DNA of 64,000 bases, taken from assembly GCF_964204645.1 (NCBI RefSeq), contig NC_134026.1, positions 23,284,150-23,348,149 of the forward strand, read 5' to 3'. A program made the translations under genes and the position numbers. This DNA is from Tubulanus polymorphus. Lineage: Eukaryota; Animalia; Nemertea. Below the pieces are notes generated by a model. The model was not told the origin of the DNA. It did no database searches and worked only from the letters and a program-made list of their open reading frames with translations. Shown here in pieces: positions 7,101 through 60,334 of the stretch (positions are counted from its first letter, which is position 1; the number at the start of each line of letters is the position of its first letter).

Positions 7101-8049
7101 AAGAAGGTTTATGCGAAAGGAAAGGCAACAAAAACTGTGTCACCAATATCTAGCAGAAAAACCCGAGGTCGTCCACGAAAATCTTCTGAAAATGAACCAA
7201 CATCCGTCGAAGCTACTAGTACTACTAGTTCAGCACTAACCACTCCTGTTGTAGGATATGAAGTAAGTGTTTTCCTGGTTTTTAACATCTATGCAAGCTG
7301 CATCCCATGAATGAATATTTCAATTATTCTTATTGTTTCAGAACACGTTCGATGAACCAACTTCGACGATGGATCTCAGCCCGCAGATAATTGTGCACCA
7401 TTTGACTCTCGGTGAGGTCCAGTGGGTAAAAGATATCCATTACTATGACACTTGTCGGCGGTGTATGGATGTTAAACTCGAGAATAACAAATGTCCGGAT
7501 TGTAATGCTGAATATCGCAAATCGTGCGTTCTAAAATCTGTGCGGGCTTTACTAGGAATCCGGTGCATCGAAAACGGTCATGAATCGTGGCAGGAATTCA
7601 TGTTCTACACGAGCCATCTACGCCATTTGCTGCGCGATCGTAATGTCGATATGTTTAATATAAACTCACTGAAGGCAGTATTACTCGATGATTCGGATCC
7701 GTTAATTTTCCATTTCTCGGCTACCGACGGTATAATAAATATCCTCGATCTGAATCACGTCAATTCGTTTAGTGGCTCGTCATCGGGATATTCAGAATCT
7801 CCTGCATTAGCAACATCGTCGTCGTCGTCTTTATCCGCGGAGGATTCTACGGCTCTAGTGCCAGCCGTGTCGGCTCCAAGTTTAACTTCTTTACCATCGA
7901 TTGCTTTGCCTCCTAGCGTTTCGACGAGTAACTTTCCGGAACTCGCTGATCAAGTACAAAACATCATGCACAATATAAGCGGTTATCGAATAATTCAATA
8001 TCAAAGTGCCGCTGCTACACAGGTGTTCGGACATCATTCAGCGTATTAG
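4176..8049 (+). CDS. CXXC zinc-finger / AT-hook nuclear protein with a C-terminal C4 zinc-ribbon (RPA1-C-like) region, ~1233 aa; coding exons 4176-4319, 4413-7262, 7342-8049
   Basis: Exon 1 translates to [48 protein letters not shown], a canonical zf-CXXC with the KFGG motif. Phase-0 GT-AG introns join it to the 970-aa and 238-aa ORFs. AT-hooks: [26 protein letters not shown]-terminal YYDTCRRC-x9-CPDC. Probable non-coding exon ends at ~2524 (ACAG|GTAATT); long 3'UTR with AATAAA near 10543. Confidence 0.85.
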
Positions 8050-18600: not shown

Positions 18601-20105
18601 CACTTTATCCAAGATCCAGTTATGTTGTGGATGTTGCTTTAGGAATTGTCGCGACATGGGCAGCCTTTATTCTTCCGAACTATACGGCGTTGGATCCAAT
18701 GCCAGAAACTGCCGTTGAAGCTAACCACGTCGGCCGAAGAAAATGGGTAATCCATGAAAAAGTGATTTGCACGAAATCACATGAAAGCATAGTTATGGGA
18801 TCCGATATACAATTATATCCAATTGGGATGGCGACCGGGTCACTTGGTCTACGATCAACTGGAGAGGAACAAACACGGGTAATATGGGTCGAAACATGTC
18901 AAACTGAAGAAGAGCTGCCTGGAAGTCCAGAAGAACCGATAGATAACAGTCAAACTGAAGAAGAACTGATAGAGGAAAATTCAGAAAAACCCAAAGAAGA
19001 ATGTCAAACCGAAGAAGAGCCAGCGAAAGAAAAATCAAAAGGACCGATAGAAGAGAGTCAAACTGAGCAGAAATCAGCAGAACCTATAGAAGAAAGTAGA
19101 ACGGAAGAACAACCAACAGAAGAAATTATACAAGAACCTAAAGAAGAAAGTCAATCTGAAAAAGAACAAACAGAAGAAATAATGGAAGAACCGCAAGAAG
19201 AAAGTCCAACTAAAGAAGGACCAACAGAAGAAATAACAGAAGAACCGCAAGAAGAAAATCAAACTGAAGAAGAACCAATAGAAGAAATAATAGAAGAACC
19301 TAAAGAAGAAAGTCAAACTGAAGAAGAATCAACAGAAGAAATGATAGAAGAACCGCAAGAAGAAAGTCAAACTGAAGAAGAACCAATAGAAGAAATAATA
19401 GAAGAACCGCAAGTAAAAAGTCAAACTGAAGAAGAATCAACAGAAGAAATAATAGAAGAACCGCAAGAAGAAAGTCAAACTGAAGAAGGACCAACAGAAG
19501 AAATAATAGAAGAACCGCAAGTAAAAAGTCAAACTGAAGAAGAATCAACAGAAGAAATAATAGAAGAACCGCAAGAAGAAAGTCAAACTGAAAAAGAACC
19601 AACAGAGGATATAATAGAAGAACCTAAAGAAGAAAGCCAAACTGAAGAAGAACCAATAGAAAAAATAATAGAAGAACCGAAAGAAGAAATTGAAACTTGG
19701 GAAAAACCAGAAGAGTGTAAAGAAGAAAGTCAAACTGAAGAAGCGCCAGTGGAAGAAAAGTCAGAAGAACCTAAAAGTCAAGTTGAGAAAGAATTAACTG
19801 GACAAGAATCACATGAACAGATAGAGGAAATTCAAACAGAAGAAGGGTCACCGGTAGATGAAACTACAATAGTTCACGATACTGATACTTTGACCAGTGC
19901 GGCGGCGTGGCCATTGATGAATGCCCCGATTGAGAAAGAGTTAACAGAAACACAAAGTTTACATATGAACATATTTGATGACGAATATGAAGACGGGGAT
20001 GAAGAAATACTCGAACCTACCGATGAAATGTTTATATCACGAGGTGGAGTTACGTGTACAACTTCCGTTGCAGATTTCAGTATGCAATCAGAAATGGAGG
20101 ACTGA
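15664..20105 (+). CDS. SLC22-family (organic cation/anion transporter-like) MFS protein, about 10 exons, with a long acidic repeat C-tail
   Basis: N-terminus MDLEERLIELGNRGRYQ, large Cys-containing loop ending WLLVCD, GHLADRWGRKP (MFS motif A), VELFG...R, GESPLWL (cf. PESPRWL), ELSPTSGR (cf. ELFPTxxR), LP...PET. All joins are in-frame GT-AG. Confidence 0.88.
15833..15912. repeat. Imperfect (CTTA)n microsatellite in SLC22 intron 1
   Basis: Run acttacttacttacttacttatttacttagtcacttacttaacttacttag. Confidence 0.8.
18897..19760 (+). repeat. Coding tandem repeat, 54-bp unit (18 aa, EEPQEESQTEEEPIEEII-like), roughly 15 copies
   Basis: Successive units visible in the 18627..20105 ORF, e.g. EEPKEESQTEEESTEEMI / EEPQEESQTEEEPIEEII / EEPQVKSQTEEESTEEII. 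Confidence 0.95.
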
Positions 20106-28807: not shown

Positions 28808-31800
28808 TCAAGTCATTAAAACTGAAGCTGCCTTATTCTCAACATAGTCCATCGCTTTTTGCTTCACCAAATTCAGACTGTCCTCATCACCATATTTCTT
28901 TTCAAACTCCATGTATTTTTTGAAGAAAAATTTCATCTTGAAGGCGGAAAAGCCAAGATTTATCACTCTTTCGAATAGGGCTCTGGAAATAAGGACGGAA
29001 TCGCAAACATATTACTACATACTAAATAAAATCTATTCTGTCACAATGTTAACTAACTTTAGGTTTAGTTCCTTACCGAACTGGTTTCATATCTCCTTGC
29101 AAAATTAACATGTCTATGTACACGGACCATAAATCTGTTCGTTTGGGGTAGTTACTGACAATATTCTCAAACATGGTGATGCCTCTTTCTGGTTCTCCGT
29201 GCTTGAATTCAAGTTTGGCGAAGTTGGATATAATCTCAACATCTAAAATACAAAATTGACAACTGTTATCTATTTACCAAGGAATCTGCTGAAAAATACT
29301 GATGTAAAAATCCCTCAAACTTACGATCTCTTTTCTCCAGACATTTCAGAGCTCTTTGCAATAACTTTCTTGCGGAATCAAATCGTTGCTGTTTGTAGTA
29401 AAATAAACCAAAGTTCACCCAAACTTTCTTCTGAGAACTGAACCGTTTCAACATTTTGTTGTACAGCAATTCAGCAGCCTGAATTAACGAGAGTGAATGA
29501 TGAATAACCGGTTCATCTCGTCAAACAATAACGCACTATTTTCATTAGAAATCAAATCATTTTCACTTTACCTCGTGTTTCTCTGAACTGATATAAATTC
29601 CAATCAATTGTTGGAAGACTTCGAAGGGCTCATTATGTTGTACAGCTCTATCAAATACAGCTTTCAAGTCTTCCTCGGAGCCATAAGTGCTTTCAACATT
29701 CATCATAGCACCCCATACATTCAATTTCTCTTGCTCTTCCCTAAAATGATTCAAATACCAATATAGTAACAGCAGTGAACCAGCACTGAATGGCGGAAAT
29801 TAAAGGAAACATATATCATTAATCAACAATGAAGTTTTAATCATCGCGATTCACTCTACAACTGTGGTTCTATAAATCATTTGACGACTCACTACTGAGA
29901 GTCTCGTAACATTAATTGGTCACACCAAAACTAGACTAGTCTAAATGAATTTTTGGCCATACACATATGACTCAATTTTAACATTTGAACATACCTGAAT
30001 GAGATGGTTTTTAGAGCACGTTCTGCCACGGCGCGTGCTTTATCGATTTCGGCTGTCTCCAAATGGAAAGCCATATATCTGATCCACACAATTGAGCTGT
30101 TTGGAGATTGGAGCACAAGTCGATCATAGTCGGCTGCTGTTTCTAGTATATTCTGACCTTTAAGTGCCAACTTCTCATTCTAAAATACAGTGAATACATC
30201 AGCAATAAATGAATTACCCAGTATACATCAATAGATCCTATCACATACTTCAGGTTAACATTACATTTTCCAGTTTAAACTCAGAATTGAACAAGGCTCT
30301 ACTGTACACACCTCAAAAATCTTTTTTTCTTCTTCAGCCTTTTCTTTTGCCTTTTCTTTCTTAGTTTTCTTTTGAATGGGCTGAAAATGTGAATTCAAGG
30401 CTTTACAAAAATCTTCAAAAAATTATACGCATCTATCAACGGAACATCCCATACCTGCACTATTTCCTCTTCATCGGATTCGCTCTCAGAGTCCTCCGAT
30501 TCATCATTTTTCTTAGTAGCGATCAGTGCCGGTGGTTTGTACAAATTATCCCAAGAAAAATCTGTTGAAAGTGTTAATCTTAACGGGCCTTTTTTATTGT
30601 GTTGTTCATTAATATCCTCTACACCACTGTCTTCATCCTCATTGACGGATAGCAATCTCTCTCTTTGCTTCTTAGGTTTTTCAGAATTATAATCTGTCTC
30701 GCTACATTGAGATATAGTACGTTTTCTTTTCCTAGATTCTTGTCTATCAGATGGTTCACATACTTCTACTTTCACACCTGTGTCTTCTTCTAACATTGAT
30801 ATCTGAATGCTCTTATCGCTTTTGTGTAAACTAAATTTTTGTACGAATGAAAAAAACATGATTGTACAATACATATTTTATCAAATGAAATCTGTTCTAA
30901 AATGTACAAAATGACTGGAAGTGTACCTGAGGGTTTTGACAGCAACACGGGCACCAAACGGTAAATCTTTACCAACGTTGCACATTTTCTCAAAGTTAAC
31001 CTGACCAAGTTGATTTTTCGATAACCTAAAAAGGTGCGTATTAGAGTTCATAAATTGAAAGATTTATTTTGCTTTTTATGAAGTGATAAACGCAATATAT
31101 TTTGTCTATGATAAGAAGTAGGGATACATACCACACTGATTTCCCATTAGGAGTTGATGCATTAATGTAGGCATCAAGTACATCCCCAACTTTGAAGTCA
31201 TTAAAGCATTTCTCATCCAGATTTTGGTGAAAAGTGGAGTTAATCCTAAAGGGATGACAAAACTTAATCAATTATCTTGTCATTGATTTAATTCTTTGAT
31301 CCTAGATTTCAGTAAAATGTTGATATGAACTTACTTTTCTTGTAGAAGTGACACTATCCATATTTTCTCTTTATCTTGGCCGAAAATAAAGCATTGAGTT
31401 AAATTCTTTTGTTTCAATCTTTTTTGACACCTTACACCACCAACTTCATCAATACTTGCAAAACCAATCATACCATTAGCCAGCAATACCGATGCACCTT
31501 TACTCGTAACTTCTGTCACTTGACAGTGAGTAACTGAGCAAGGAAGGATATCAATGCGACCTGGATAGGAGAGTTATTTAAGTGATCAACTGGTCGAAAC
31601 ATACTCATACCCAAATTCTATCACAATTAATATTGCATACCAATCATGGATAATTCTAGATGATTCGCACTTATAGTTCTAACCACGGTCGCTTTACAAA
31701 TCGTACCAATGTGAAAACTTTTTTTGGGCTGTTGCAATACCTGTAAAGAAATTCAACTTTCCAATTTGAGGAACTAGCACAAATAAAGAATATTTGAATT

Positions 31801-37800: not shown

Positions 37801-40800
37801 TTTCATCGCTTATCTCACGAACCTGATAATTTCAGATAAACAAACCCAAAAAAAGCGATCAATTAGTTGGTGAGATATTTAATTGGATTATGAATGGATT
37901 AGATCTAGGTAAACCCATATAGATATTCAAGACAAGGGCAGTAGATTTGAATTTGGTAAGTGAACTACATGTATATTGATCAGAATTATAAATTTGTCAC
38001 AGTATTGAGTATTGACTGGGTTGGATAACATGTGACAGATGTATAGGGATTGATGTATGACACATATGGGTTGCATGTGGGACATGCACTGGTGACTACA
38101 ACTATAGATGAGTCCAAAACAGTGTAAACTCATCACAAATGGGTCCAGATTTTCGTATTTTAACTAAATATACCAACAATTGTGCAATGAGAAATGTAAA
38201 ACACAATTATTCTGTATTTACATTCTAAAAAGTCTGACTACATCATTTCGATGACACCTATATCGACACCTTCATAATGGACTATTCCAGATGTTCAAAT
38301 GATTTTTCTATAGTACTGTAGTACAATCAAACAAACACATGTTGCTCGAGCTCAGGGAATAACGGCATATTCTATACATATAGGCATCTCGACATACATT
38401 TCGCAATAAGTGGCACCAAATAACTTTCGACTACAATAAGAATATGTAAAATTGAGGAGAACTCATAAAGCTCGGCGTATTTGAAATTTTGTAAGATGAT
38501 GGCTAATAAATATCCCGACTACACAAAACCATGGAGACATTCAGATATATCTTTTCACGTCGAAGGAAAGATCGTACACGCGAATAAGACGATATTGTCG
38601 ATGTGGTCGCCGGTATTTGAAGCGATGTTCACGAACGATTTCAAAGAGAAACACGCATCTGAGATTAAACTACCAGGAAAGGATTACAATGATATACTGG
38701 AACTATTGCGAGTCATACACCCACCAAACAAGAAAATTGATGGTAAAATCAAATTTTTTTTTCATTACATATGTTCTTGTACAGTACTTGCTAGTTGAAA
38801 AATCCCTAAAATAAAGAGTTATGTATGAAATCATCTAAATGCAATAAATATGCAGCTAAAACCAAAAATAATTGAATGTTTTATCTAAGCAGGAGATATG
38901 CAGAAATAACATAATATTGAAATCATGCATGCGCTTCTTGAGCTGGCAGCTGCAAATTTAGATGCATTAACCATGTTAGTCATCACTATTGAACTTATTG
39001 GTACAATGAAATTATGCTTTAACTGAAGAGATTTATTGATAATGATGATGGATTGATTTTTCTGTTCATAAGCCCACCCGCTATAACAGATGTTCCGTAT
39101 TATTGCCTACATGTACATGGAAACCATTTCGGTTTCACATCTCAAGACATTTTAGCTGGCAGAGCATAATCACCAAAAACAATAATGAACCAGTATTCTG
39201 TTTCAACAGTCACCACAAACAGTCAACAGTAAAATATTTAATGACAACAGATGTTTGGGTAGCTTTCAATAAATTGATGTGTTATTAGTGAACCATATTG
39301 TTGACTCAGCTGAGCCAGCAGGAAAATGTAGATTACTAACACACGTTGAATATTTGTTATCGAGCCTGAGATGACAATAATTACGTTCGCCTTCATATTG
39401 AAGACCCATAAACATAACAGTTTAAGGTTAATATTTGACAACGCGTTGTCAATTTTTCCATTTGCAAAGTTGTGAAAAAACTACAAAAACTTCAACTCAG
39501 ATATGGACACCAATGTAATGGCGAACACTAATTCACATTCTAAATCAATAACGTTATCATATGAATTGTATTTTGTGGCTACTATTATGCACATGTGAGT
39601 AAAACACAGCTGCTAATATCAAACGCTTTTTTTCAGATATCTTATATCATTTTTGAAATTAGTGAAGTAACATTCTTATTTAGCTGATTTTATGTACAGT
39701 TTATGATACATATACTTTTAGATTGAGATATGTATATTTTCAGGGAATTCTGTCTATAAGTTACTACCACTGGCGAGGGAATACCAGATGTTTGTTTTAA
39801 CGGAAAACTGTGAAGAATATTTACTAACGCTGCCACCTAGCATGGAGCACTTGATCATAGCTGAGGAATACAACCTGCCAAAACTACTAGATAAATGTAT
39901 CAGTTTTGCATCGAATGTCAAACTGTGTGACCTAGAATCACGAACAGAATTCAAACAACTCGAACAAACGACGATGATCGAGTTGCTTCGACGTAAAATA
40001 CAAACTCTTGAAACGAAACAAAAGGCACTGAAAACTATCCATGAAATCGTCAGTGGCGACCGTCCTCACTGGAGATATGACTGCCTCGATGAGAGTCGCG
40101 GTGCACACAAACAACGCTCAGATATCTCGTGCGATGCCTGTTCATATTGGATGTGCGATGAAGTCCGAAAGAAATGTCGACAAATAATGGAGAATCTAAA
40201 CTAATCATTTATAGAAATTACTTAATCATTTTTAGTATTTACATTATTTATTTATGGAGTTTCAAACTATTTTCATTTATGCGGTGTATAATCAATAGGA
40301 AACTGGCATCTCACCAGATAGCCCGATAAAAAGTCATACTATATCAAAATAACTTCCACACACAAAAATATTTGTGGTTTGTCCAAATAGCTAAGGTAAG
40401 AAACCCTTTATATATAGGATTGTAACAAACGAGTAGTACAAACTAAGAACTTGATGTAACGACGACCCACTACAGTTGTAGCATAAATTTTAGTTAACCT
40501 TATTGATATTTATCATTGATTTATTCATAATACATGGAATGGTTTTGGGTTGAAGATATAGTTTATTTGTCAAAATTTTATTCAATAAAGCTTTAAAAAA
40601 CAAACACTTCCAAGTTTTCGCAAACAAATACCAGCATTAAGCAGGACGATTTATTACTTACAGGGACAAATCCTTGGACATCTTTGCTTAGTTTTACGAG
40701 TAGTCCTTGCTTTTTTATCTTGCCGCATACTTTCACACTGTTGAAGATCTTTCCTCGAGGATAATCTAAATGCGTATCAGACGTTTGTGGATTTGAACCA

Positions 40801-43369
40801 ATCAGATGAGGAAGCGTTGTCAAAACGACAGACTTTCTTGAAGGATGAACATACAGCACGCATGCAGTCACCTAATGTAATAGATGGATGGCATATGTCA
40901 GTACATTTTGGGAAAAGAAAAAAGATTTTAGGAAGAAATCCAAAAACGTATCTAAAAAAGAAATCATTACCTTTTGGTTTTTTTCATAGGATGAAACTTC
41001 TGATGCAAGATGTATCTGATGAATACTACATTTAAGCATATCTGAATATTTCACACTTATTCCATTTTCAGCAACCTGTACATATGATAGAAAAGCCAAA
41101 TAATTTAGGACCCTCCAATGAAGATATAACCAAGAAGCGCTATAAACTAAACATGGACATCAAGTCCTTAAGGAACTTACTTATCTTTATTTGTCCCATG
41201 ACAAGTGAAAAATATTTTGATTAGGGGCCCAGGGAAACCATACCCACTTGTTGAAATGCTTGATATTCTGATATTCTAATATTCAAAGACCTTGGGCTCA
41301 GTTCTATACAATGGTATCATCTTTAACCCACTGGTTAATTCAACTGAAAATGAATTGAGTTAGCCCCAGGTTTAAGTTAATACCAGTCAATGAAACTGGG
41401 CCCTGGTGAACAAAATTATTTAAATGAATGACCTTGAACGAACTACATTCATACATTGGTGTTCATACGACGACCAGCTTGTGTCATATCAACCAATTTT
41501 CCTTATGATGATGGGCCCTAGATTTCCCTTTAAAATGAAGATTTCAAAGAAGCGTAAAAAGTACAGATTTTGGTGAAAAACAATGACCATCAGTCAGCCA
41601 TCTTGAATCTGATTGGGCCAGTTTTTGGGCTGTAGATATTTCTAGGGTAGATACATCCACTCGCCAAAATAACTGGATTCTGTCAATGAAATGAGGATGA
41701 AAAGTGAATGTAATAACCTACTGGAACTCACAGGCGGATTAAAAATAGGATACATTTCTATCATCCATTCATGTTAGTAATACATACCGACTGGACAGTT
41801 GTTTGCAAAATCATTCCAGGCAATAAACTTGAGAACGGAATGGAAGTTGGTGTTCTAGCAGCTTCAACAACTTTAGGATCGACAACGACCTGAGTTACAC
41901 GTAATCGACCATCTTGTCTGTTCAGATCATCTTTGACCAGGCAGTTCAGGTATTCTCCAATAACCAAACCTTTTTCTGTACAATAATAAAACTTATTTAC
42001 AAAAAGCCGAGACAAATCTAGCACAAAATTAACCCATCCGAAGGGACCTACGATTTTTTTTGTTTTTAACATATTTCTCTGCAGCGTTTGTAGTTACAAA
42101 TGCCTGAATGCCCTTAATGCCAAGATCTACTATGTATCCATGATCCTCGATGCTCGATACAAAGCCACCGATTACCTGAAACAAAAAATTATTTTTTCAG
42201 GAGAAAATTTCATAAAACTGAAAACGAACTTGATTTCAGTCACTGTCATCCAAACGCATGAATAATGTGCCCCAGTGGCCCGAAAAAATGGCTAGGGCTG
42301 ACATCATAACCATGAAAATGAATTGTACCAAGATTATGCAACTGGAGTTAAGTTTTCAAACTCAATTATTACGAGGTAGGTTTTAGCTCCCAAAATGATG
42401 CAAAATTGTGTTAACAGTAACAAGCAACTAACCAAGAGAGCTAGTGACAAAATGGACTCTTAAACGAGTCACTGATAAATATTTGCTTTACCATTCCTTT
42501 CATTAGATCCGCAGCCGCTATCTGGTGGTTGACCTCTTTTGGATTCAGAGTAAGCTCAAACCATCGTTTGTTCTTCTTTTCTGTAATATCTTTAACCTTA
42601 CATCTCACAACTGTGCCTATTTCAAATAAATCTTGTAAACCACACACGTCCTAGGAAAAAGAATACAATAACATTGAGTTGGTTCAGAATTGATTTGTCG
42701 TCCAAAACATGTTCTACTGGGTTAGAGAACCAGTCTCGTTTTAGTAAGGAATAACATTTCAAAAACCATTTTGGCTACAATCTTAGGCCAATTCAATGAG
42801 TTTGTCTTTACACTAGGCCCAACTGTACGAAAATCAGATGCTATCTGTATAGTTCTCACCTGTTTGTCGGAATCATTTTGTGTCAATGACTGAAGGTTTT
42901 CCGTATACACATCACAAATATCAGTAATAGCAACACATCCGGTAACATTGTTAGATAAGCTCACGATCAGCTTCAAATCCTGGACGTCTTTCACCCGACC
43001 CAACAGTAACATATTCTGAGTGACAGCTGGTGAAACGAGCCGTTCTATAACTACGTGTTTGAACTCATCTTGTTCGTCATCTTGTTCTTCTAGTTTCGCC
43101 TTTTTACTTTTCTTGTCGTCTCTTTTGTTCAATTTTCTTTTCTTCGCAACTTTTTTATCAGATTCCTAAAATTAATTAATAAACTCTATTTCACATTGTT
43201 ATCAAGTTGAAGGAGGCTAGTATAGATTTATTTGATTAAAACTTACAGAAGTTTGATGAGCTTTGAATAAATCAGGTATATGCTTTTTTGTCGAAACTGT
43301 TGCATTCTCTTTTTCTCTTTTCAAAGATTTCTTCCCACCTCTTGGGAAATCTTCGATTATCTTAGACAT
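28808..43369 (-). CDS. PDCD11: rRNA biogenesis protein RRP5 / PDCD11 (S1 repeats plus C-terminal HAT/TPR), many exons, with an internal block duplication
   Basis: N-terminus [12 protein letters not shown]; multiple S1-like exons; C-terminal [46 protein letters not shown]|[16 protein letters not shown]...[14 protein letters not shown]...[17 protein letters not shown]. Confidence 0.95.
34217..34303 (-). other. U12-type (minor spliceosome) GT-AG intron in PDCD11, duplicate block B
   Basis: 5' splice site GTATCCTTTT; branch point GCCTTAAC about 13 nt upstream of the 3' end; phase-0 join SSDL|ILTTKKS. Confidence 0.85.
36250..36348 (-). other. U12-type (minor spliceosome) GT-AG intron in PDCD11, duplicate block A
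   Basis: 5' splice site GTATCCTTTT; branch-like GACTTTAAC about 10 nt upstream of the 3' end; phase-0 join HNII|TLTLKKS. Confidence 0.78.
38496..40204 (+). CDS. BTB/POZ-domain protein nested antisense in a PDCD11 intron (37823-40661); exons 38496-38742 and 39744-40204
   Basis: [40 protein letters not shown]...IHPPNKKID|[16 protein letters not shown]...CEEYL. The phase-1 GT-AG intron restores the frame. Cys/His-rich C-terminus. Confidence 0.9.
41291..41406. mobile_element. Short palindromic MITE in a PDCD11 intron, lying within a longer degenerate repeat (~41130-41750)
   Basis: Ends CTTGGGCTCAGTT ... AACTGGGCCCTGG, with internal TTAACC/GGTTAA symmetry. Confidence 0.4.
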
Positions 43370-48798: not shown

Positions 48799-50547
48799 CT
48801 AGACAACTTTGTTCACTATCTTTCCAATCTCATCAATTTCACACTCAACTACATCACCTTTCTGAAAGATAGAATAATTCACTGTTATTTGACTGCTTAC
48901 AAAAATATAGAATATTGGAATTACAGACATGCGTGCTATACCTTTAAGAATTCAGGAGGATTTCGAAAAACTCCAACGCCAGGTGGTGTACCAGTTAAAA
49001 TTATGTCTCCAGGAGTTAGTGTAACAAATCTACGAAAAAATTCAATGAACATTTTGATCAGAAATACATGAAACAAGTAGGTTAGGAAAAAAAAGATGGT
49101 CAATTAATTATTCCCTTATTGTACATACTGTGAAACAAATGATACAAGTTTCTCTGTTTTAAAAACAAGTTGATTTGTGTTACTATCCTGTTTTGTAATT
49201 CCATTCACTCGACACCGCAAACCAATTTTATGTGGATCTGAAAATCGAGAAGCAGAAATTGAAGTAAATTTTTCTATAGGGAAGCGAATCAGATTTCCAG
49301 TGATGTAAATGATTACTAACCAGAAATGGAATCTTTGGTAACAACAGCTGGACCAAGAGGACAGAATGTGTCCATAGTTTTACCGACTAACCATTGTTTA
49401 CCATTTCTTTTCATTTGCCAGTCACGAGCGCTGACATCATGGGCTATAGTATAACCAAACACATGATCCATCGCATCTGTTTCCTGATGTACATGATAAA
49501 CAAACACAAGTGACATATTAACTAAAAAAAATCTTATGATGATTGTCCAAGAGACAGTCTATATAAAATCATTCTCTCTCTAACTAGAAAGGGTTTACCT
49601 TAATGTCTTTGCCTCCTTTTCCAATCACAATTGTCAATTCTACTTCCCAATCTAATTCCTGTAGAGGCGAAATATATACCGGGTAATCATAAATGACCTA
49701 ATTTTTCATATCAGGCTTGTAACAAAGTTATTGTTGCTTTGGAAAGGATGCTTGGTATCATTACCTGAGTGACCTTTGGATGAACAACATCATCATTTGG
49801 GCCAACTATGGAACTAGCAAACTTGCTGAATATGACAGGTTCAGTAGGAACTGGGAGGTTCTGTTCAGAGCAATGATCATGATAGTTCATACCAATACAT
49901 AACACTTTATCAGGTTTTGTTATTGGCGATGTAAGATTCACTTCTTCTGGTTTAAGTGTACATTTTCTTTCGGCCACTATCCTAAAACAAATTAGAACTC
50001 ATCTCTATATAACATCATTACAATTTTCCTAGTAGATACAGTCACAGGGGCTCGTATTAGATTTGTAGGTAATGTAAAAATGATAATCTTTTAATCCAAT
50101 GTATATAGGCCTAGTATATATAAAATAACATATATACTTTATACATTGGATTAACAGATTATCGTTTTTACATTACCTACAACTCTGATACGAGCCCCTG
50201 TAGATACAGTTACTTATCGAGTCAAATTACCTTTTGACTTTTTTAACAACATTGCCATCGCCCTCTTGCAAAAATTCAACCATACTATTCGGAATAGCAC
50301 TATCCGCATCATTCAAATCCACGATCTCCCCATTCTCTAACTGAACTCCGAGTTTGATGGTACTCTTCTTATCAGATGTATTCGGGGTGAATTGCACAAA
50401 CCTCATTTTACTATGTCTATGTCTATGAAGGCTTCTACAACTCCTAACAACAAAATTACACGAAAAAGTGGAAGGCTTTATCAATTTCAACGAAATAACT
50501 CGTGACAAAAGAAGAAGTTTGGACATTGAACTGATAACGCAGCACAT
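48799..50547 (-). CDS. FAHD2: Fumarylacetoacetate hydrolase domain-containing protein 2, with a mitochondrial-type presequence (alternative ATG at 50526)
   Basis: MRFVQF...[19 protein letters not shown]...PVIFSKF...[14 protein letters not shown]...[31 protein letters not shown]...[14 protein letters not shown]...[12 protein letters not shown]. Confidence 0.95.
50045..50200. mobile_element. Foldback MITE (~60-bp TIRs starting CAGGGG) in FAHD2 intron 1
   Basis: CAGGGGCTCGTATTAGATTTGTAGGTAATGTAAAAATGATAATCT... is mirrored by ...AGATTATCGTTTTTACATTACCTACAACTCTGATACGAGCCCCTG. Flanked by TAGATACAGTCA / TAGATACAGTTA. Confidence 0.85.
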
Positions 50548-50744: not shown

Positions 50745-53700
50745 ATGAGGTGATTATTAAAGATGGCGAGGATATTTTTCTACATATGTAATTTAAGTTC
50801 ATTTGAAGTTCGTTATCAGGTTATGGTGCAATATTTTAGCGTAAAAATCTTGACGGTCGTACTAAGTATCGAGCGAAACAGTCGAGTATGTGCAGTGTAT
50901 TGACAAGCGTGTAATTTTTCAATTGTTTCTAGCGTGGCGGAGGAAGGGAAACGATTGCTGACTCAGTTGAAAAGTGAGGATGGTGAAGTTCTAGGTGCTC
51001 CTTTTGATTTGCCCGTCGACATTACAACAGAAAAACTTCAACTGATTTGTAATGCATTACTACAGAAAGTAGGTTTTAACTGGTGCTCACTCCGCCACTT
51101 ACTTAACAACTTGAGATAATGACGATGATGATGATGATGATATTCTCCAAAATTTCTTTTTTCAAGGAGGAGCCATGTCCTTATTCTTTTTTTGTTGATG
51201 AGAAAGAAATCACCACAACTCTAGAGGGCTGTTTGGATAAAGACACTTTAGAAAGCTCGGAAAAAGTTGTTGAAATCATATATCAGCCAGAAGCTGTATT
51301 CAAAGTCAGAGCAGTTACAAGATGTACTAGTACAATAGAAGGCCATGCTGAAGCTGTCATATCTGTTGCATTTAGTCCTTCAGGAAGGTTAGTGTCAGAT
51401 GGTATGTCTCTATAGAGACTTAGGATTTTCTGTCCATTCAACAGAAAAGCCTTGAACTTGAAAAACTTGAACTTAAAAGTGTTAATAAAAATGTGAAGGG
51501 TGCGGCTATGCTGAAACCAGTTATCACTGCTTTGCAGCTATATTTGAATATTGAACTGCTCATAGATGATTTTTGTATTTATTTTTATGTTCAGTTATTT
51601 GGCAAGTGGTTCCGGTGATACGACTGTCAGATTTTGGGATGTTAATACAGAAACTCCACATCATACTTGTAAAGGTATGACTGCATCACAATCATACAAC
51701 ACAGATTTAAATCGAAATGTGATCTATATTTATGATGGGTGGATCATTTAATGTGATCTCTTTTATTTCCATTCCAGGGCATAAAAACTGGATTCTGTGT
51801 ATAGCCTGGTCTCCAGATGGAAACAAATTAGCATCCGGGTGCAAAAGTAGTCAAGTAAATCAATAAATTTGTCTACATGTATCTTCAATATGTTTCTATA
51901 ATAATTGAACTAGGAATAGGAAAATAGGAATGTTAGAATTGCCTCCTCTTTTAAATCCATGTGTAGGTTGTTTGTTATAAGTCATTTCTTTTGCGGTGTT
52001 CTTATGTTACAGTTCACATTTTTATTTGTTGTTCACTTATTATATTCTCGTCTTCCACCATAATCATTGAATGATTCTCTACCAAAAAGATCTTTAATTG
52101 AATTATTGTGAACCTCTCAATATACAGTTTGTACAGCGCTAACTGATGTTTTATGATATTCAGATATGTATTTGGGATCCAGTAACAGGAAAGCAAATTG
52201 GTAAAACACTCACCGGACATAGACAATGGATAACCTGGCTTTCATGGAAACCTTTACACTTGTAAGCATGCTCAAAATATTTCTAATTCTGATATTTGTA
52301 ATAACGCTGTGTTCTTTATTCTTATATATATGAAAAGAGAAGTTTTATGAATGGGCTTTTGTCTTGTTTTCTTCATTTTAGAGATCCTTCCTGTAGATAT
52401 GTTGCCAGCTCATCGAAGGTCTGTTTCGCTTTGAATACATGTAGTTATGAGTCTCATTGTATAATCAAATAATGATGTATCAATTTTACTTTGTAGGACT
52501 GCACTATACGGGTGTGGGATGTAGTATTAGGACAGTGTCAAGTGGTACTGTCTGGTCATCTACAAAGTGTAACCTGCATCAAATGGGGAGGATCAAATTT
52601 ATTATATACGTCATCACAAGACAGAACTGTTAAAGTTTGGAGACCAGAAGATGTAAGTTTGATGCTCAGTTACTAAAGAGATACCCGTATTTGATTTTGT
52701 TTATGAAGTGAACAGGGAAGTTTCTCTTGATAATAGGGAGTATTGTGTCGGACGTTACAAGGACATGGGCATTGGGTAAACACTCTGGCTTTAAGTACAG
52801 ACTATGTTCTACGGACTGGTGCATATGATCCCGCAAAAGCTGTGATAACGCCACAACCAGTCAGTGGCAAAGGTAGATTTTCCTTTGATAATTGATTAAA
52901 GCCAAATTATTTGCTGAATACTCTGACAAGTTTTATTGAATTTCAAATATTACATATATTGCAACACACATTCATTGTATCAAGAAAAGAAAAGAATATG
53001 ATATCTGACAAGAGAATACTACACTGAATCTAGTTGATATCTAAAATCTGAATTAATTCACTACCTCAACTAATGAAATATACAATACAGACGTGTTCAC
53101 ATACGTCATGTATATTGAGTATTCGATGTACTGATTTGGATTAAATCTATTCTTAATTAAGTTGATTATTTATTTCTAAACATCTCTAGAGCACTGTGTG
53201 TACAATTTACATATCGAGGCAGAATATCTATCTACAAAGCAACTAATGATACCTGAATTCATTTAAATGCTAGGAAACCTGAGCTGTAGGTAGTATCGTG
53301 AGCTACGTCATGTGTTTATGCCATTATTATCACATTTTGCTCTAATTATATATAACTGCTTGAAGCAACTGATAAAAATGTGGTTTCATTTGCCGAATTT
53401 GATTTACATAATTGCTGAACTGCACTGGGCTGTATTTACACATAAGGCGGTAAATGTTGATTTTTTAGTTATTTTATCTAGCAATGCATGCCTAAATTAC
53501 CCTCATAAATTGGGCTTAGATACCCTGTTGGTAGACAGCCCCTGTGCCCGGTTTTCCAATAAAACTTTGAATCTACCAGGTCTTCGTCTTCAATGTATAG
53601 ATGATATTTTCCTCCAGTGAATTTAAGAGGGTCGTCAGTTGTCGGGTACAACTTTTCTTTAAAGTAATGTACTCTACCGAAGGTATCAAATACACCAGGA

Positions 53701-56700
53701 GCAGTTATATTTTTTTCATCTAATATGCGACATGGTCTGCCAGCGGTTATGTTTTTGTAGATACTTGAATACTTTATGTTCCCCAAGCGCTGTCCAATTG
53801 TTGGTGGTGTAAAGAGAAACTTCATTTTCAGTCCTTCAGATGTGAGTGTTTCATTACATTTTTGCTGTTTAGTTGTAACGCAAGAGGTTAGATTTCTGTA
53901 GTAGCAAAACTCTTTTTCAGTTACTAGTGTATGTTGTTTAAGATAGACGTATTCCTGATCCTTAATTCTTTTGTACGAAAAGGTGACAAAGATTCCATAC
54001 TTTCCAACATCATATGTCTGCATAATTGTAGCCATCTTTATCCAAGCATTCTTTTGGGTTAGATGTCCAGTTATATTTTGACAGCTCTGTGTGTATTTAG
54101 GATGATTCAGGAATATACCAACGTCGTCGAAATATTTATTAAAATCGGTCGTTTCAGCGAGGTTCAACTTTTTCAGTTCATATTGGCCATTTTTTGTCGG
54201 TTCTAAATGAATGCACAAGAAGATGATGAGACCGCCGCACATCATTACGATAATGATTAAAGCAATCAACAAGCGAACGAGTTTCATTTGGAGAGCTTTC
54301 ACCTCTTCCTTTACTAGTGACCGCATCTGACGAACAACCATGACCAAAGAAATGAGAAAACCGTTGACGAAAAGCAGTGTGGCTCGGATGAATTGTACTC
54401 GACTAATGGCAATTTCTTGGCATGTGCAGATAAGGACATATATGATAACTTCAGGTACCCCATGGATTATTAGAACAGCAAGTGTTGCAATATCGCAGTT
54501 GATGAAACAGTTGCCGTATAATTCATCGCGCGCTGTATTCATAATGATCAACATAGTTGTAAATACACCGATAATGCAGAACGTTAGAAAGGCATTCACG
54601 ATCTCCGATGGAAATGGCCCGAAAATGATTTCTCGTTTCATCGATGTGAGATCATAGTAAAACATCCAGTTCAATGTAAAATCGCTCATATAGGCAACTA
54701 ACGTCATCAGAAAAACAATGATGTTCAACGTTTTCTTTGTGCCGGACCGATGCGGACAGTCAGGTTCATGAAGTTGGTCATCGTCGACGAGTTGAGATTT
54801 TTCGTTACCAGCGATTCTTTCAGTAAGTTCATGTTCATCTTTTGCTGCCATAGTTTTCTCTTTTCTCTAGATACACTGCATTCATTGTAATTCTACTTCA
54901 TCGGCATTAGATTCTTAATTTTCTTTGCTTCATCTTTTTCTTCCTACGTATTGAAATTCACTCGATCTACTTAAATCTTTCAATCAAATTATAGTATAGA
55001 TTAGTGTCTGACATATCTCTACTTACCAGTTCAGGGTGTCGATGTACTGGAAGTGGTACAGCTGTACAGAATTCTTATGCCAAAGACTGCAGTATAATCA
55101 GCAAAAAATACATCAATCATCTCTGTTCTTGATGCACAGATGTTGCCATCTGGTACTAAAACCTGAAGGCTTTATTAGCAGTTCAGATGACATGCGGATT
55201 ATTGATTTCGTCAGAATTAGAAATGCTTCAACAGGATACTGTATCTAATTTTCTTTTATTGAATAGCTAATGAAAGTGCTTAGACAACATTGACCCAAAA
55301 ATATGATAAAAATTTAATTCTATCCGTATAAGAACATTTTGTGACCATTAGCATCTTAATCCTAAATCTTGTACATATTGTGGCTCTAAATATCCAGTTG
55401 GAAAACACTTCATGTGGCCAGTTCTCCACGCCCATTTTGCATCCATCATGTCCTTCTCTGTGTACAACCTTAGATTCCTTGAGTTATCAATAGCTTTTAA
55501 CGGAGACAATAAATCAGATATATTGAACTCTCTGAAATAATGCAATTTGCCAAATTCATCCCGTGCTCCTGTAGCATATCTGTAAGTGAAACACGTCCCG
55601 TTGTCCTTATTATGCATAAGCATCGCATCAAAATAAATGTCCCCTAAGCGCACGTAGTCTTTAGCTTGGATGAACTGAAATTTATACGTATATATGGATG
55701 CTGTTGGGCTGAGGTGGTAACTAGTTTGACAGTTTACCAGTGTTTGAAACGAGCAAGTTGTCCTGATGTCGCGCATGTAACAGAATTCCAGCGTTTCAAT
55801 GATCGATGATGTATTCACGTATATGTATTCGGTATTTTCGAATTGATTATGTATGTACGTAGTTGTTACTCCGTATATACCAACGCTTCTCACATCGGAT
55901 ATGGTCGCCAATTTCAGCCAGCTGTTTGTCAAATTTGGACAACCGATGCCGAATGATGGATGTTTGAGGAATATACCAATGTTCGTAAAATATCTGTTGA
56001 ATTGTGTGCTGTTTTTCTGAAGTGTTTTCAGTTTAACTTCTCCGTTTGGAGTTGGTTCGAGGTGAGTAAGCAGAAATATCAGTATTCCACCAGTCATAAG
56101 AAGCATTACACCCATCGACAGGAAAATGTGCACGAACCGTTTTAGCCAAGACTGTATCTTGCCATTGATTTCCGCGCGTACAAATCTGGTCACAGCGATA
56201 ACATTCAAAAACACACTGTTAAACAGTAAAAGCAAGGCACGGTAAAACTGAATGCGAGTGATTTCAACTTCTTGGCACGAAGCAATTATTACATAGAGAA
56301 TCATCTGAGGAATCGACGAACACGTGATCGCGATGAGGTTCACAAGGTCGACATCTAGCAGCGGCTTCCGGTAGATTTCACCTTTTGTCACGTTGTACAT
56401 AACGAGAATACTCGTAAATATCCCAATGATGCAAAAGGCGAGAAAACTGTTCACGATTCTCTCGTCGACTGGTCCGAATACGAGTCCGCGTTCGACATTT
56501 AACAACTGAAAGTACATGGCCCAATCAAGAATCATATCGCTAATGATCCAGACCATTGTCAGTAAAAAGATTGTCGTTCGTAATATCGGACGCTTCCAAA
56601 ATAAATCATCATGCTCCGGTCTATCCATGAGTTTAACTTCTCATCTACAGGCAAAAAACAGTGTCAAAACCTCAGCTTTGTTCTGTATGACTAGCTCTCC

Positions 56701-58691
56701 ATGTCCTTTGGCTTTAGCGATTTTTTCTGTTTTGCTGCGTTCTTTATTTCGACCTATAATTTACTCGTCATGTGTGTCAGCTAAACTATCGAGTTCATCT
56801 TTATAATACAAAAATGATTTTTCGTGATCATTGTCTCAATATTAAATGTCTGACACCTGTTGCTTCGACCAACTGTTAATCATTCAAATAAAAACGATCA
56901 AAAGCTGATGTCTACTTTGCATATACAAAGAGTATATCACTGTACCTTTCATATTTCTATTCTATTTTTACATGAAATTTTCCATGGAAGAAACTACTAG
57001 TTACACATATCTTATTTATGTTTGGCGATGAAAAGAAAGAAACCTCATTTTGACATTGCTTATGTTCACAAATTTACTGAATCTTATTCTCTTACTTAAG
57101 ATTTGTGAAGGATTATATTATGTTTTTGTTAGCCTTTCATCAGATAGAAAAAGTCTTGCTCAATATGGTGACTATTGATGTAATATGAACCTTTGTATGT
57201 TTGATATTGTTGATTTAGGGAATTTCATGCAGCAGAGAAAGTGGTTCAGTTGTCTTAAATAAACAAATATATACAAATGCATGTACCGGTATACCAATAT
57301 CACTTAAACTTTTCTGACCTTGTTGTCATCTATGTCACATATGACATTTGTAGTCTGTTATCAAATTAAGTCCAAGTTAAATATATGATATGAATGTTAT
57401 ACAAGAAAGAAGGAATAGGTTTACTTAACTTCTTATTCACAATAGTGAAACATTTTCATTTGTTTTATCTCAACAGGTGAAGAACTTAAGAGTAAAGCCC
57501 TTGAAAGATATAATAATGCCATAGTAAGTTATGCCTATGATCCGAAATTCATAAATCTTTGATTTATGATCGTATGTAATATATGTACAAATATAGTTAG
57601 TTTTTCTTAGTGATGTCATAATCAAAATAAAAAAATGGAAATGTTTATCAGAAAAAAATATTATGACATCCGTAGAAATATGATAACTCTATAAATAATG
57701 TATTGATGCCATGAAAAACTAGATTATCAAATGATATTGTGGTTAATGACTGCTATGTCTAAATGGATTCTTCAATTCATTTCAGGGTTCTCATCCAGAA
57801 TACTTGGTGTCAGGATCAGATGACTTCACATTGTTCTTATGGCAGCCGGCTGTAGATAAGAAATCCATTGCACGTATGACTGGTCATCAGCAGTTAATCA
57901 ACGAAGTTCTATTTTCACCAGATACTCGTCTGATTGCAAGCGCTTCATTCGATAAATCAATAAAAATCTGGGATGGTAGAACTGGAAAGTATGTTAGCTT
58001 TATTAGTTACATGATTACAGAAATATTGTTCCCTCCATCTCAGATTACTTATTATTACTTTTGTATTTAGATATCTGTCATCATTACGAGGACATGTGAG
58101 TCGTGTTTACCAGGTTGCTTGGTCGGCTGACAGTCGACTTCTATGTAGTGGCAGTTCAGACTCGACACTGAAAGTCTGGGATATGAAAAAGTTCAAAATA
58201 CTTCAAGATCTACCAGGTCACGCTGATGAGGTATGACATAATTCACAGGCATACTTGATTAGAGCAGAATCTCATTTGAATCATAGATTGAACTTTTATT
58301 AAGGTTTACTTACGCTATATTGCATGAAAATTTGCATGAATGACTTTAGGATCTCGAATTAGAATATCTATGTACACTATTTTATATACATAAAAACATA
58401 CAAAAGATTATTCATTTAATAAATATGTTGAATTGACCGCTTACATCAGGAAAGTATTATGAATATTGCTCTTTCTTTGAAATATGCAAAATCATTTCCA
58501 AATGGAATTGTGCCTTGCAGGTTTATGCAGTTGATTGGAGTCCAGATGGTCAGAGAGTGGCTAGTGGGGGAAAGGATAAAGTTCTCAAAATGTAAGTTAT
58601 TGTTCCTATGATTAGTCATTTAAGATGGATTTCATGATACATGTATTTCAAATACGCTCTTCCATTTTCTTGTTTCAGATGGCGTAAATAA
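50745..58691 (+). CDS. NLE1: Notchless homolog 1 (NLE domain + WD40); probable 5-nt first coding exon ATGAG; large intron ~52873-57476
   Basis: [142 protein letters not shown]. The start position is less certain than the rest. Confidence 0.95.
53478..54851 (-). CDS. Uncharacterised ~5-TM protein with a C-terminal Cys-containing ectodomain, paralog A (457 aa), nested in an NLE1 intron
   Basis: Uninterrupted ORF with about five hydrophobic segments and NxS/T sequons in the C-half. Shares FGP, CQE-x-x-I, KYF-x-x-x-G-I-F-L-x-HP, FG-x-x-HYF and W-x-TG-x3-C-x-PTG with its paralogs. Confidence 0.88.
   Translation of the reverse strand: MAAKDEHELTERIAGNEKSQLVDDDQLHEPDCPHRSGTKKTLNIIVFLMTLVAYMSDFTLNWMFYYDLTSMKREIIFGPFPSEIVNAFLTFCIIGVFTTMLIIMNTARDELYGNCFINCDIATLAVLIIHGVPEVIIYVLICTCQEIAISRVQFIRATLLFVNGFLISLVMVVRQMRSLVKEEVKALQMKLVRLLIALIIIVMMCGGLIIFLCIHLEPTKNGQYELKKLNLAETTDFNKYFDDVGIFLNHPKYTQSCQNITGHLTQKNAWIKMATIMQTYDVGKYGIFVTFSYKRIKDQEYVYLKQHTLVTEKEFCYYRNLTSCVTTKQQKCNETLTSEGLKMKFLFTPPTIGQRLGNIKYSSIYKNITAGRPCRILDEKNITAPGVFDTFGRVHYFKEKLYPTTDDPLKFTGGKYHLYIEDEDLVDSKFYWKTGHRGCLPTGYLSPIYEGNLGMHC
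55348..56628 (-). CDS. Uncharacterised ~5-TM protein with ectodomain, paralog B (426 aa), nested in an NLE1 intron
   Basis: Uninterrupted ORF with [48 protein letters not shown] and [12 protein letters not shown]. Minus-strand AATAAA at ~55255-55260. Confidence 0.88.
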   Translation of the reverse strand: MDRPEHDDLFWKRPILRTTIFLLTMVWIISDMILDWAMYFQLLNVERGLVFGPVDERIVNSFLAFCIIGIFTSILVMYNVTKGEIYRKPLLDVDLVNLIAITCSSIPQMILYVIIASCQEVEITRIQFYRALLLLFNSVFLNVIAVTRFVRAEINGKIQSWLKRFVHIFLSMGVMLLMTGGILIFLLTHLEPTPNGEVKLKTLQKNSTQFNRYFTNIGIFLKHPSFGIGCPNLTNSWLKLATISDVRSVGIYGVTTTYIHNQFENTEYIYVNTSSIIETLEFCYMRDIRTTCSFQTLVNCQTSYHLSPTASIYTYKFQFIQAKDYVRLGDIYFDAMLMHNKDNGTCFTYRYATGARDEFGKLHYFREFNISDLLSPLKAIDNSRNLRLYTEKDMMDAKWAWRTGHMKCFPTGYLEPQYVQDLGLRC

Positions 58692-58813
58692 TCTGCAATG
58701 AAGGCATTATCCAATTCATTTGTAAAATATGAAGTAAAATATGTTTTAAATACAGTTAATGAAATTTTCTTCTTCGTGAGGTCGTTTTATTCTGACAATG
58801 ACCTGAACAGTTT

Positions 58814-60334
58814 TTAACACTGATAATTTTCAATTTCTGATTGAGCCAATTTTGGCTCTTTCAGTCCTGTAGTTTCACATTCCCAAAACCCAGTCCTCCA
58901 AATTTGTCCCACATCAGTAAGTTCTGCTTGCTGGTAATAAAAAACTGTGGATGCATTGACTTGCAATGTAGTTTCTCCATATTCAGTATAGTAATATCGC
59001 ATCCAGCCGAATTCCTGTGATGGAAATTGAACATCAGCACAAGCTAATGGACCAGAATTGATGCTCATTATTTGTGTTGCTTTAGCGAAGTACTCTATAT
59101 TGCCCAAAGTAAGAAACAAATGTGGTGGAACAAAATTCAAATATATCAGTATGTTAGTAAAAGAGCTACTATTCCAAATTTGAAGCTGGCATCCTGGGTC
59201 AGGAACAACAGAACAATTTGAAATGTTTTTGATGTAACAGCTTTGGTTTATCATATTTCGAAATGGCCTTTCCAAGTAGAAAAACTGGTTATCGCTGACT
59301 GTCAGATAGCTGTACTGAAGTTTCATGAATTTCTTAGAATAAGCTCGATTTTCCATGATATTGTAAAGTGAATCTAGTTGAATTAAGAATGTTGGATTGC
59401 TAGGTTTTGTGCAGCCATCTTTGAAGGATGGGTGGCTGTAGAATAAAGATACATTGTTGAAATATTTGCTTGTCTCATGGTCACCACTTAGAATTCCAGC
59501 TGGTATCCTGAATTCAAATTCGAACGAACTGAAGTTGACAATCACATGGGTAGTGAAAAAGAATGTACATACTGAGCAAATCAATGTAACCAGTAATCCC
59601 AACACTATGAAAGTGCGAATACACTTAAAGGAATGTTTAAATTTCTTCCTTTCTTTTTTCATCTGGGCATCCTGAATACAGTATTGAATACTAGTAATCA
59701 ATACCCTTAGAAGAATCGTTACTATTGGTACAAGTGCTTTAACCAATTGGACATAAGTAATTGCCACTTCATGACAAGCTGTTATTGCCGTCATGATAAC
59801 CATTTGTGGTACATCCTCTATCCAGATAGTGATAAGTCCAGCTATATCCGGATGTATCCATGATTTGTTAGTGTTATATTTCCTCACGAAGTTCACCAGC
59901 TCAATAAGAAATGAAACTGTCCCCGCACAGTTAACTATCAATAGCGCCAGCACAAAATAGCTTTCAACTGGTCCATACACCAGACCTGCTTCTTGGCTCC
60001 AAACCTGGTATAAGTATACCCAATCTAAGATGAACTCGATGAAAAGAAATAAACATGTAGCAAAAAAGATTGTCCTCCGAAACCATAATTTCTTCTCTAG
60101 TTTACGTATGCATGGACAGATGGCATTGTCCACTAAATCTGGTTCCTCTGGATCTACAATTTGGAATTCGTTATTTGGTAGAGTGAGTGTAGAGCCTGTC
60201 TGTGATTGTGGAACCTTTGCCTCATTTGAGTCGTCGTTTGAAGTGGATTTCCCAATGTGAGATAAATCATCATCAGGTATTGGCTCTTCTGTAATTTCAT
60301 CATTTGACTCATCATGTTTAGTATTCTCCGTCAT
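58814..60334 (-). CDS. Uncharacterised ~5-TM protein with ectodomain, paralog C (506 aa), tail-to-tail with NLE1
   Basis: Uninterrupted ORF with an acidic N-tail, EFILDW, GLVYGP, WIEDVPQMVI, CHEVAIT, KYFNNVSLFYSHP, FGWMRYY and WRTGFWECETTG. Confidence 0.9.
   Translation of the reverse strand: MTENTKHDESNDEITEEPIPDDDLSHIGKSTSNDDSNEAKVPQSQTGSTLTLPNNEFQIVDPEEPDLVDNAICPCIRKLEKKLWFRRTIFFATCLFLFIEFILDWVYLYQVWSQEAGLVYGPVESYFVLALLIVNCAGTVSFLIELVNFVRKYNTNKSWIHPDIAGLITIWIEDVPQMVIMTAITACHEVAITYVQLVKALVPIVTILLRVLITSIQYCIQDAQMKKERKKFKHSFKCIRTFIVLGLLVTLICSVCTFFFTTHVIVNFSSFEFEFRIPAGILSGDHETSKYFNNVSLFYSHPSFKDGCTKPSNPTFLIQLDSLYNIMENRAYSKKFMKLQYSYLTVSDNQFFYLERPFRNMINQSCYIKNISNCSVVPDPGCQLQIWNSSSFTNILIYLNFVPPHLFLTLGNIEYFAKATQIMSINSGPLACADVQFPSQEFGWMRYYYTEYGETTLQVNASTVFYYQQAELTDVGQIWRTGFWECETTGLKEPKLAQSEIENYQC

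Follow-up and report, generated by a model that had tools for sequence, protein, structure and literature searches.

A 64,000-nucleotide (nt) stretch of the genome of the nemertean Tubulanus polymorphus (assembly GCF_964204645.1, contig NC_134026.1, positions 23,284,150 to 23,348,149), referred to here as the window, carries three paralogs, designated A, B and C, which encode predicted membrane proteins with a glycosylated ectodomain and a resemblance to one half of an XK-related (XKR) protein. They lie within and beside NLE1, as follows (window coordinates; aa, amino acids):

53478..54851, minus strand: paralog A, 457 aa, intronless, uninterrupted open reading frame (ORF)
55348..56628, minus strand: paralog B, 426 aa, intronless, uninterrupted ORF
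58814..60334, minus strand: paralog C, 506 aa, intronless, uninterrupted ORF
50951..58691, plus strand: NLE1 (Notchless), the host gene, 13 exons seen, frame open over at least 471 aa (spliced contig, run X2)
52873..57476, plus strand: NLE1 intron of 4,604 nt, holding A and B in antisense (splice joint, run X2)

All three ORFs are longer than the longest stop-to-stop frame found in 200 shuffles of the 50-62 kb region (181 codons). A and B share 35% identity and C is 24-25% identical to either of them; an earlier note on this DNA had described three intact, diverged, intronless ORFs on the same strand, and the motifs it pointed out (SDMILDW, EFILDW, EDVPQ, SSIPQ, HGVPE and W-x-T-G-x3-C-x2-T-G) were all found. 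No fourth paralog turned up when the 2,018 stop-to-stop segments of the window were searched with a profile. The genes had also been described as interleaved with NLE1; A and B are nested antisense in a single intron, and C lies just past the NLE1 stop, tail-to-tail with that gene. All 12 NLE1 introns in the spliced contig run from GT to AG, and Notchless homolog 1 was the best natural PDB match of one plus-strand exon. The same contig extends (58679-59543, plus strand) about 730 nt into the coding sequence of C, and the first plus-strand AATAAA past the NLE1 stop is found within C, at 58936. The NLE1 and C transcripts are likely to overlap in antisense; alternatively, two RNAs may have been merged in one unstranded contig.

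In run X1, a single contig was found to span all three ORFs with zero indels within them. This contig differs from the window at 12 coding positions, of which 7 are synonymous and 5 replacement, where 21% would be expected to be synonymous (ratio of nonsynonymous to synonymous polymorphism, pN/pS, 0.19; p=0.005), for a run that may be the window's own source and hence a second haplotype at best. A, B and C show signs of purifying selection; the corresponding divergence ratio (dN/dS) between the paralogs is unusable because synonymous sites are saturated. Seven of the eight run X2 contigs in the NLE1 intron map to A, B or their 3' flanks, although these contigs are unstranded, could be NLE1 pre-mRNA and are no proof of A or B expression.

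A family search with a profile built from eight sequences identified 272 clusters (at 50% identity) at E<=1e-3, including 103 at E<=1e-30, and among the best 150 of the 272 most of the strongest are proteins of 400-520 aa that were matched end to end. Thirty relatives were looked up by name, and all are labelled "uncharacterized" or "hypothetical" except for one "mucin-5AC-like" protein. Named members come from molluscs, one annelid, flatworms and one hemichordate (Haliotis, Patella, Crassostrea, Pecten, Mercenaria, Paralvinella, Cichlidogyrus, Protopolystoma, Paragonimus and Saccoglossus). Precomputed PF27623 matches were found on five relatives (P0004-P0008), aligned over 83-99% of the query, while NCBIfam matched none of five proteins. 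The earlier note recognised no named family with this layout, but the sequence family is already catalogued as PF27623, widespread in invertebrates and apparently unstudied. Literature searches, whose coverage ended short of subscription journals and supplements, found nothing on PF27623, on the gene identifiers of members or on single-repeat or half-size XK proteins. For prokaryotic relatives, one pattern scan gave 50 stretches, none of which was confirmed. At six of six metagenome loci (which may be DNA or RNA), the gene is a single open frame and NLE1 is absent.

In a quick tree of 69 rows, which excluded fragments, stand-alone relatives and part of the full-length rows, A and B group as sisters (Shimodaira-Hasegawa-like approximate likelihood ratio test, SH-aLRT, 99) within a clade that includes C (91), and this clade adjoins one with the annelid Paralvinella (92). 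We infer that A and B arose by local duplication and that acidic residues, described below, then decayed in the A/B ancestor. Several members carry long additions (P0052, P0078, P0107), either about 400 C-terminal residues, which belong to the scallop member labelled mucin-5AC-like, or low-complexity N-tails of 140-215 aa.

The architecture of the family is best described on C, for which the following features, all on the minus strand, were identified (TM, transmembrane helix):

59552..60088, minus strand: five predicted membrane helices, residues 83-261 (AlphaFold2, structure searches, Pfam)
60023..60037, minus strand: E100-x3-D104 in TM1, by motif spacing the putative counterpart of Xkr8 D26/D30 and Xkr4 D123/D127
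59804..59818, minus strand: E173-D-V-P-Q177 in TM3, by spacing the putative counterpart of Xkr8 E141..Q145 and hXkr4 E313..P316
59774..59776, minus strand: C187 at the outer TM3 end, predicted partner of C486 (cysteine co-loss)
58817..59551, minus strand: beta-rich N-glycosylated ectodomain, residues 262-506, predicted disulfides 308-374, 366-382 (pair assigned by elimination) and 432-506
58865..58900, minus strand: W479-x-T-G-x3-C486-x2-T-G, strand of the ectodomain with a predicted staple to TM3 (cysteine co-loss)

The AlphaFold2 model of C, built on a 121-sequence alignment (predicted local distance difference test, pLDDT, 82.8), has helices at residues 83-112, 125-155, 162-187, 194-225 and 233-261, mostly with pLDDT >90, followed by a beta-rich domain; the loop between TM2 and TM3 has 6 residues. 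The roughly five hydrophobic segments reported before appear in the model as five membrane-length helices. The N-terminus is predicted to be inside and the C-terminal domain outside, after helix 5, because, across 86 full-length rows, sequons number 1.79 per 100 residues after TM5 and 0.22 in the membrane portion and because K/R make up 22-25% of residues upstream of TM1 and in the TM4-5 loop.

Among relatives, conservation is high at D104 (0.91) and W105 (0.95) of TM1, E/D145 of TM2 (0.91), D/E174 (0.89), P176 (0.97) and C187 (0.96) of TM3 and K199 of TM4 (0.92), and stands at 0.70 for D100, 0.68 for E173 and 0.68 for Q177. C has all five acidic positions intact (E100, D104, E145, E173, D174). 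As the earlier note had supposed, A and B are degenerate, with one and two of the five positions kept, respectively: only D57 is left in A, which has N61 and H130-G-V-P-E134 instead, and B retains D31/D35 of TM1 and has lost the TM3 acids (S104-S-I-P-Q108). Acids could be scored in 99 of the 121 rows; the full triad (the TM1 pair plus the TM3 E) was present in 57, all five acids in 54 and no more than two in 14. A clade with parasitic flatworm members (P0111, P0127, P0130, P0153), of which three (P0111, P0130, P0153) keep at most two of the five acids, represents a second case of de-acidification besides A/B.

Proteins of 166-192 aa that end after helix 5 were found in bivalves among the weakest listed matches, for example Crassostrea gigas LOC105338491 and Pinctada FSP39_006963. 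One such cluster has 260 members, including a Crassostrea gigas gene, and three of these proteins are predicted on one 53-Mb Pinctada scaffold. Their profile aligns to the family over 171 columns (hhalign 99.8%), and E-x-x-D-x3-D-W, E-D-x-P-Q and Q-x-x-K are kept in 12 of 12. These stand-alone relatives, which are also uncharacterised, thus share the five helices and the acid motifs with the full-length family, but they have neither the ectodomain nor the staple cysteine (C187 is absent in all 12), and they carry an additional acid in TM1 and a Glu in TM4 that is invariant. Their existence indicates that the five-helix unit is a module in its own right, that the fifth helix belongs to it and that the ectodomain is an addition. 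The bivalve proteins P0145, P0149, P0150, P0152 and P0188-P0195, with their fully conserved acid set, make candidate minimal XK scramblases.

The ectodomain is about 240-245 aa long, rather than the ~220 aa first estimated, and has 5, 5 and 7 sequons in A, B and C, in agreement with its description as rich in N-x-S/T. The W-x-T-G motif said to end it is present, although at least 16 residues and a terminal Cys follow. Folded alone, the domain was predicted with a pLDDT of 86.5. A structure search against 48,161 chains gave a best Z of 3.8 and none with Z>=5, Foldseek searches of PDB and BFVD were empty at E<=1e-3, and the Atlas gave no usable match. The ectodomain is thus without a clear structural match, which does not prove a new fold. 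CYTH, FHA and MHC-platform folds were rejected because the weak rows reflect a shared beta-sheet, and a P2X-like or DEG/ENaC-like ectodomain was considered, with neither among the rows shown.

Cysteine pairing, scored across the 86 full-length rows, points to a link between this domain and the membrane module. C187 and C486 are both present in 81 and both absent in 3 of 84 scorable rows, with no mixed row; by comparison, the counts for both, neither and mixed are 15, 66 and 1 for C308/C374 and 68, 5 and 4 for C432/C506. Because the two cysteines are lost together and the stand-alone relatives have no C187, a C187-C486 disulfide, which would anchor the ectodomain at the outer TM3 end, is predicted with high confidence. 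Both cysteines are kept in A (C144/C439) and B (C118/C408).

Several lines of evidence connect the membrane module with XKR proteins. PF09815 was the commonest Pfam match, found in 9 of 125 members at E<=0.1 (the next family in 2 of 125), with a best match of a relative at E 2.3e-4 and 20.7 bits, and the five matches that were inspected all extend over the E-D-x-P-Q helix, with start points between profile positions 121 and 127. In Z-scored structure searches (VIA), of which the best 50 rows of each list were considered, the C model matched XKR9 residues 1-190 (Z 8.5, root-mean-square deviation (rmsd) 3.3, 134 aligned, 12% identity), XKR4 (Z 8.2, rmsd 3.5, 138 aligned, 14% identity) and XKR8 (Z 7.3, rmsd 5.1, 162 aligned, 15% identity). 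All three solved XKRs were therefore recovered, and they have the highest identities in their lists. These structural scores (7.3-8.5) do not exceed those of generic bundles. A, B and C themselves have no PF09815 match, and a Foldseek run with the full-length model listed nothing at E<=1e-3, with XKRs absent from the rows shown. In addition, XKRs were absent at E<=10 from profile searches of PDB sequences with four family alignments, and Atlas matches for a whole relative, among them a cluster named "XK-related protein family protein" at 0.84, all scored below 0.9 and are leads only. Because the PF09815 matches, though weak, agree in position, XKR8, XKR9 and XKR4 are matched at Z 7-8.5 and the TM1 and TM3 acid motifs are conserved, helices 1-4 very probably derive from the N-terminal (ND) repeat of an XK/XKR protein. 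The earlier idea of a single XK-like repeat joined to an unrelated glycosylated ectodomain is thereby upheld, and the repeat can be specified as the acid-bearing N-terminal one.

Compared with XKR8, XKR9 and XKR4 (PF09815; PDB 8XEJ, 7P16, 9BOJ), the family has a possibly ND-like four-helix arrangement in the model, a predicted cytosolic N-terminus, the TM1 D-x3-D pair (E100/D104 in C and D31/D35 in B; A has only D57) and, in C (EDVPQ) and the family consensus, the TM3 E-x-x-P-Q motif, whose acid is lost in A and B. Unlike XKRs, which have eight TM helices in two repeats (ND and the second repeat, CD), these proteins have five helices and then a beta domain, no IH1/IH2 re-entrant hairpin (in the C model helix 125-155 is followed by helix 162-187), a fused 245-aa ectodomain and extra acids at 145 and 174. 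Moreover, XKR4, XKR8, XKR9 and CED-8 have a caspase-cleavable cytosolic terminus, whereas the C-terminus of this family is predicted to be outside, and none of 86 N-tails matched one caspase-3-like pattern. The XKR8-Basigin complex and the disulfide-linked XK-Kell complex likewise combine an XK membrane core and a glycosylated ectodomain; unlike in those pairs, the family ectodomain is in the same chain and is predicted to be attached to TM3, and no Ig or metalloprotease match to it was found in the searches run. A, B and C are not XKR members, because they stay below the gathering score and have no second repeat, re-entrant hairpin or caspase tail. They may still function like the XKR N-terminal repeat.

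Scrambling by Xkr8 needs the acids D26, D30 and E141 (PMC8500837), which correspond to D125, D129 and E313 of hXkr4, beside the P316 kink (PMC12334663). In Xkr4, D123, D127 and E310 are reported to bind outside Ca2+, and the position of TM3 controls the protein (PMC10495444). XKRs are composed of two related repeats with the acids conserved in ND alone, TM3 kinks at a PQL motif and the acid cluster resembles a divalent site (PMC8298096). Monomeric hXkr4 scrambles once ND is freed from CD, and the constriction is formed by the hairpin and TM2 (PMC12334663).

Based on these considerations, C may act alone as a single-repeat lipid scramblase gated from outside, a reading to which we assign a probability of roughly 0.4. 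E100/D104 of TM1 and E173/D174 of TM3 would form a counterpart of the acidic cation-binding vestibule with which Xkr4 thins the membrane. Since TM2 is clamped neither by a second repeat nor by a re-entrant hairpin, this vestibule would tend to be open, and a repeat that has neither hairpin nor caspase tail would need another brake. The ectodomain, tied by C187-C486, could sit as a lid at the outer TM3 end, where it is placed to be that brake, and would replace the caspase-cut tail as a switch that answers an outside cue. A and B are likely to be low-activity or binding-only versions, because the TM3 acids are lost and the fold, lid and staple are kept. Oligomerisation, which the earlier note had proposed, would not be required, since the catalytic acids all lie within one ND repeat and purified monomeric hXkr4 scrambles (PMC12334663).

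A number of observations weigh against this reading. A, B and C have no PF09815 match at E<=10, and the relatives, with 20.7 as their best score, all fall short of the gathering score of 24.8. Two of the nine PF09815 matches, the best one included, are stand-alone relatives, and among 10 further stand-alone proteins one matched PF09815 (E 0.14) and five weakly matched UPF0182. In the structure searches the XKRs occupy ranks 11 and 17 of 50 in one list and 10 of 50 in the other; generic helix bundles outscore them (best Z 10.7), and their Z scores are within the range of common arrangements. Residue equivalences to XKRs rest on motif spacing and not on a printed structural alignment, and by spacing Xkr8 E137 and K134 and Xkr4 T307 have no conserved counterpart in the family. 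The triad is incomplete in 42 of 99 rows, and the three losses of C187/C486 perhaps represent only two events (two rows are 49% identical). Lastly, acid neutralisation only slightly impaired scrambling by hXkr4 in liposomes and Ca2+ was not needed (PMC12334663), and a table of the human XK family gives most members as orphans that have no substrate (PMC9333335).

The last point also bears on the best-surviving alternative, itself unlikely, namely that the XK-derived acid cluster forms a cation site or small pore, so that the proteins would be Ca2+ or ion sensors, channels or transporters with a ligand-binding ectodomain. Consistent with such a function are the two acids that the family adds to the XKR triad (D/E174 and E/D145), the near-invariant TM4 lysine and the divalent-site and Ca2+-binding character of the XKR cluster (PMC8298096, PMC10495444), and most XK-family members have no demonstrated scramblase activity (PMC9333335). 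Nevertheless, no known channel or transporter stood out in the structure searches, a single four-helix repeat has no obvious pore and the proteins with this triad whose function was tested in the cited papers are all scramblases.

It is quite unlikely that subunits pair, either as C-C or as C plus one of the other two paralogs, and so restore the two-repeat fold, with A and B as acid-poor regulatory second repeats. This would fit the two-repeat XKR plan with acids in ND alone (PMC8298096), the tandem arrangement of the acid-poor A and B with C, under selection, and the Xkr4 dimers proposed by cell studies (PMC10495444). However, since A and B are sisters, the acid-poor partner is lineage-specific and not a family feature (at most two of five acids in just 14 of 99 rows), and in hXkr4 the monomer is active and the second repeat restrains the first (PMC12334663). 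A complex prediction for the C homodimer (score 0.00), in which the alignment was not used and the protein's own fold was uncertain, was counted neither way.

Equally improbable is a membrane module that serves as a non-catalytic anchor or docking platform, with function (adhesion, lectin-like or enzyme-like) in the ectodomain. A, B and several flatworm members lose acids and keep the ectodomain and its cysteines, one scallop member is annotated as mucin-like and has about 400 extra C-terminal residues, and XK is described as working with partner proteins such as Vps13a. Kell is a further XK partner. Yet 54 of 99 rows retain all five buried acids, which also persist in stand-alone relatives that have no ectodomain, and this argues for a constrained function of the membrane module itself. 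Least probable is convergence, an unrelated five-helix bundle with chance acidic motifs, which would account for the sub-threshold sequence matches, the PDB profile searches without an XKR and Z scores typical of generic bundles, but not for two motifs in the right helices, order and spacing, Pfam matches on one profile region or the recovery of all three solved XKRs with the highest identities in their lists.

Other features of the window include an ORF piece at 50227-50547 (minus strand), head-to-head with the NLE1 start, which has no Pfam match at E<=0.01 and which we take to be a FAHD2-like N-terminus. A likely RRP5/PDCD11 exon was found at 42722-43165 (minus strand; weak S1_RRP5 match, E 0.0012), and 30395-30877 (minus strand) is presumably another; RRP5/PDCD11 would be a second ribosome-biogenesis gene near NLE1. 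A BTB/BACK-like ORF (weak matches) at 39722-40204 (plus strand), opposite in strand to the RRP5-like exons, is possibly another nested gene. Without Pfam matches are a 512-codon Glu-rich repeat frame at 18567-20105 (plus strand) and a 979-codon low-complexity exon at 4371-7310 (plus strand), whose RGRP motifs are presumably AT-hook-like. The segment 61327-61727 is a high-copy repeat, where contigs of runs X1, X3 and X4 reach depths in the thousands and have many loose ends.

Taken together, the three genes are real and conserved and encode what is probably a variant of the XK fold, which appears to be unstudied and carries an ectodomain with no clear structural counterpart. The mechanism by which XKRs move lipids is unsettled, with papers disagreeing on the need for caspase cleavage, dimers and Ca2+, and one model places the whole XKR activity in the N-terminal repeat (PMC12334663). 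Natural single-repeat proteins, lidded and lidless, with acids intact or lost in one locus, make the question of whether ND alone is enough directly testable, and the family adds a confidently predicted 245-aa ectodomain without a clear solved relative. A broader and still doubtful picture is that of ancient bilaterian receptor-scramblases, in which a single XK repeat would scramble, a disulfide-stapled ectodomain with a new fold would open that repeat when an outside ligand is present, phosphatidylserine would be exposed without caspases, A and B would be tuned-down or decoy forms and the stand-alone proteins of 176-190 aa would be the minimal scramblase. Members are known from oysters, abalone, an annelid and the parasitic flatworms Paragonimus and Cichlidogyrus; in these animals, control of lipid exposure by a surface glycoprotein would matter for immunity, cell fusion or host contact.

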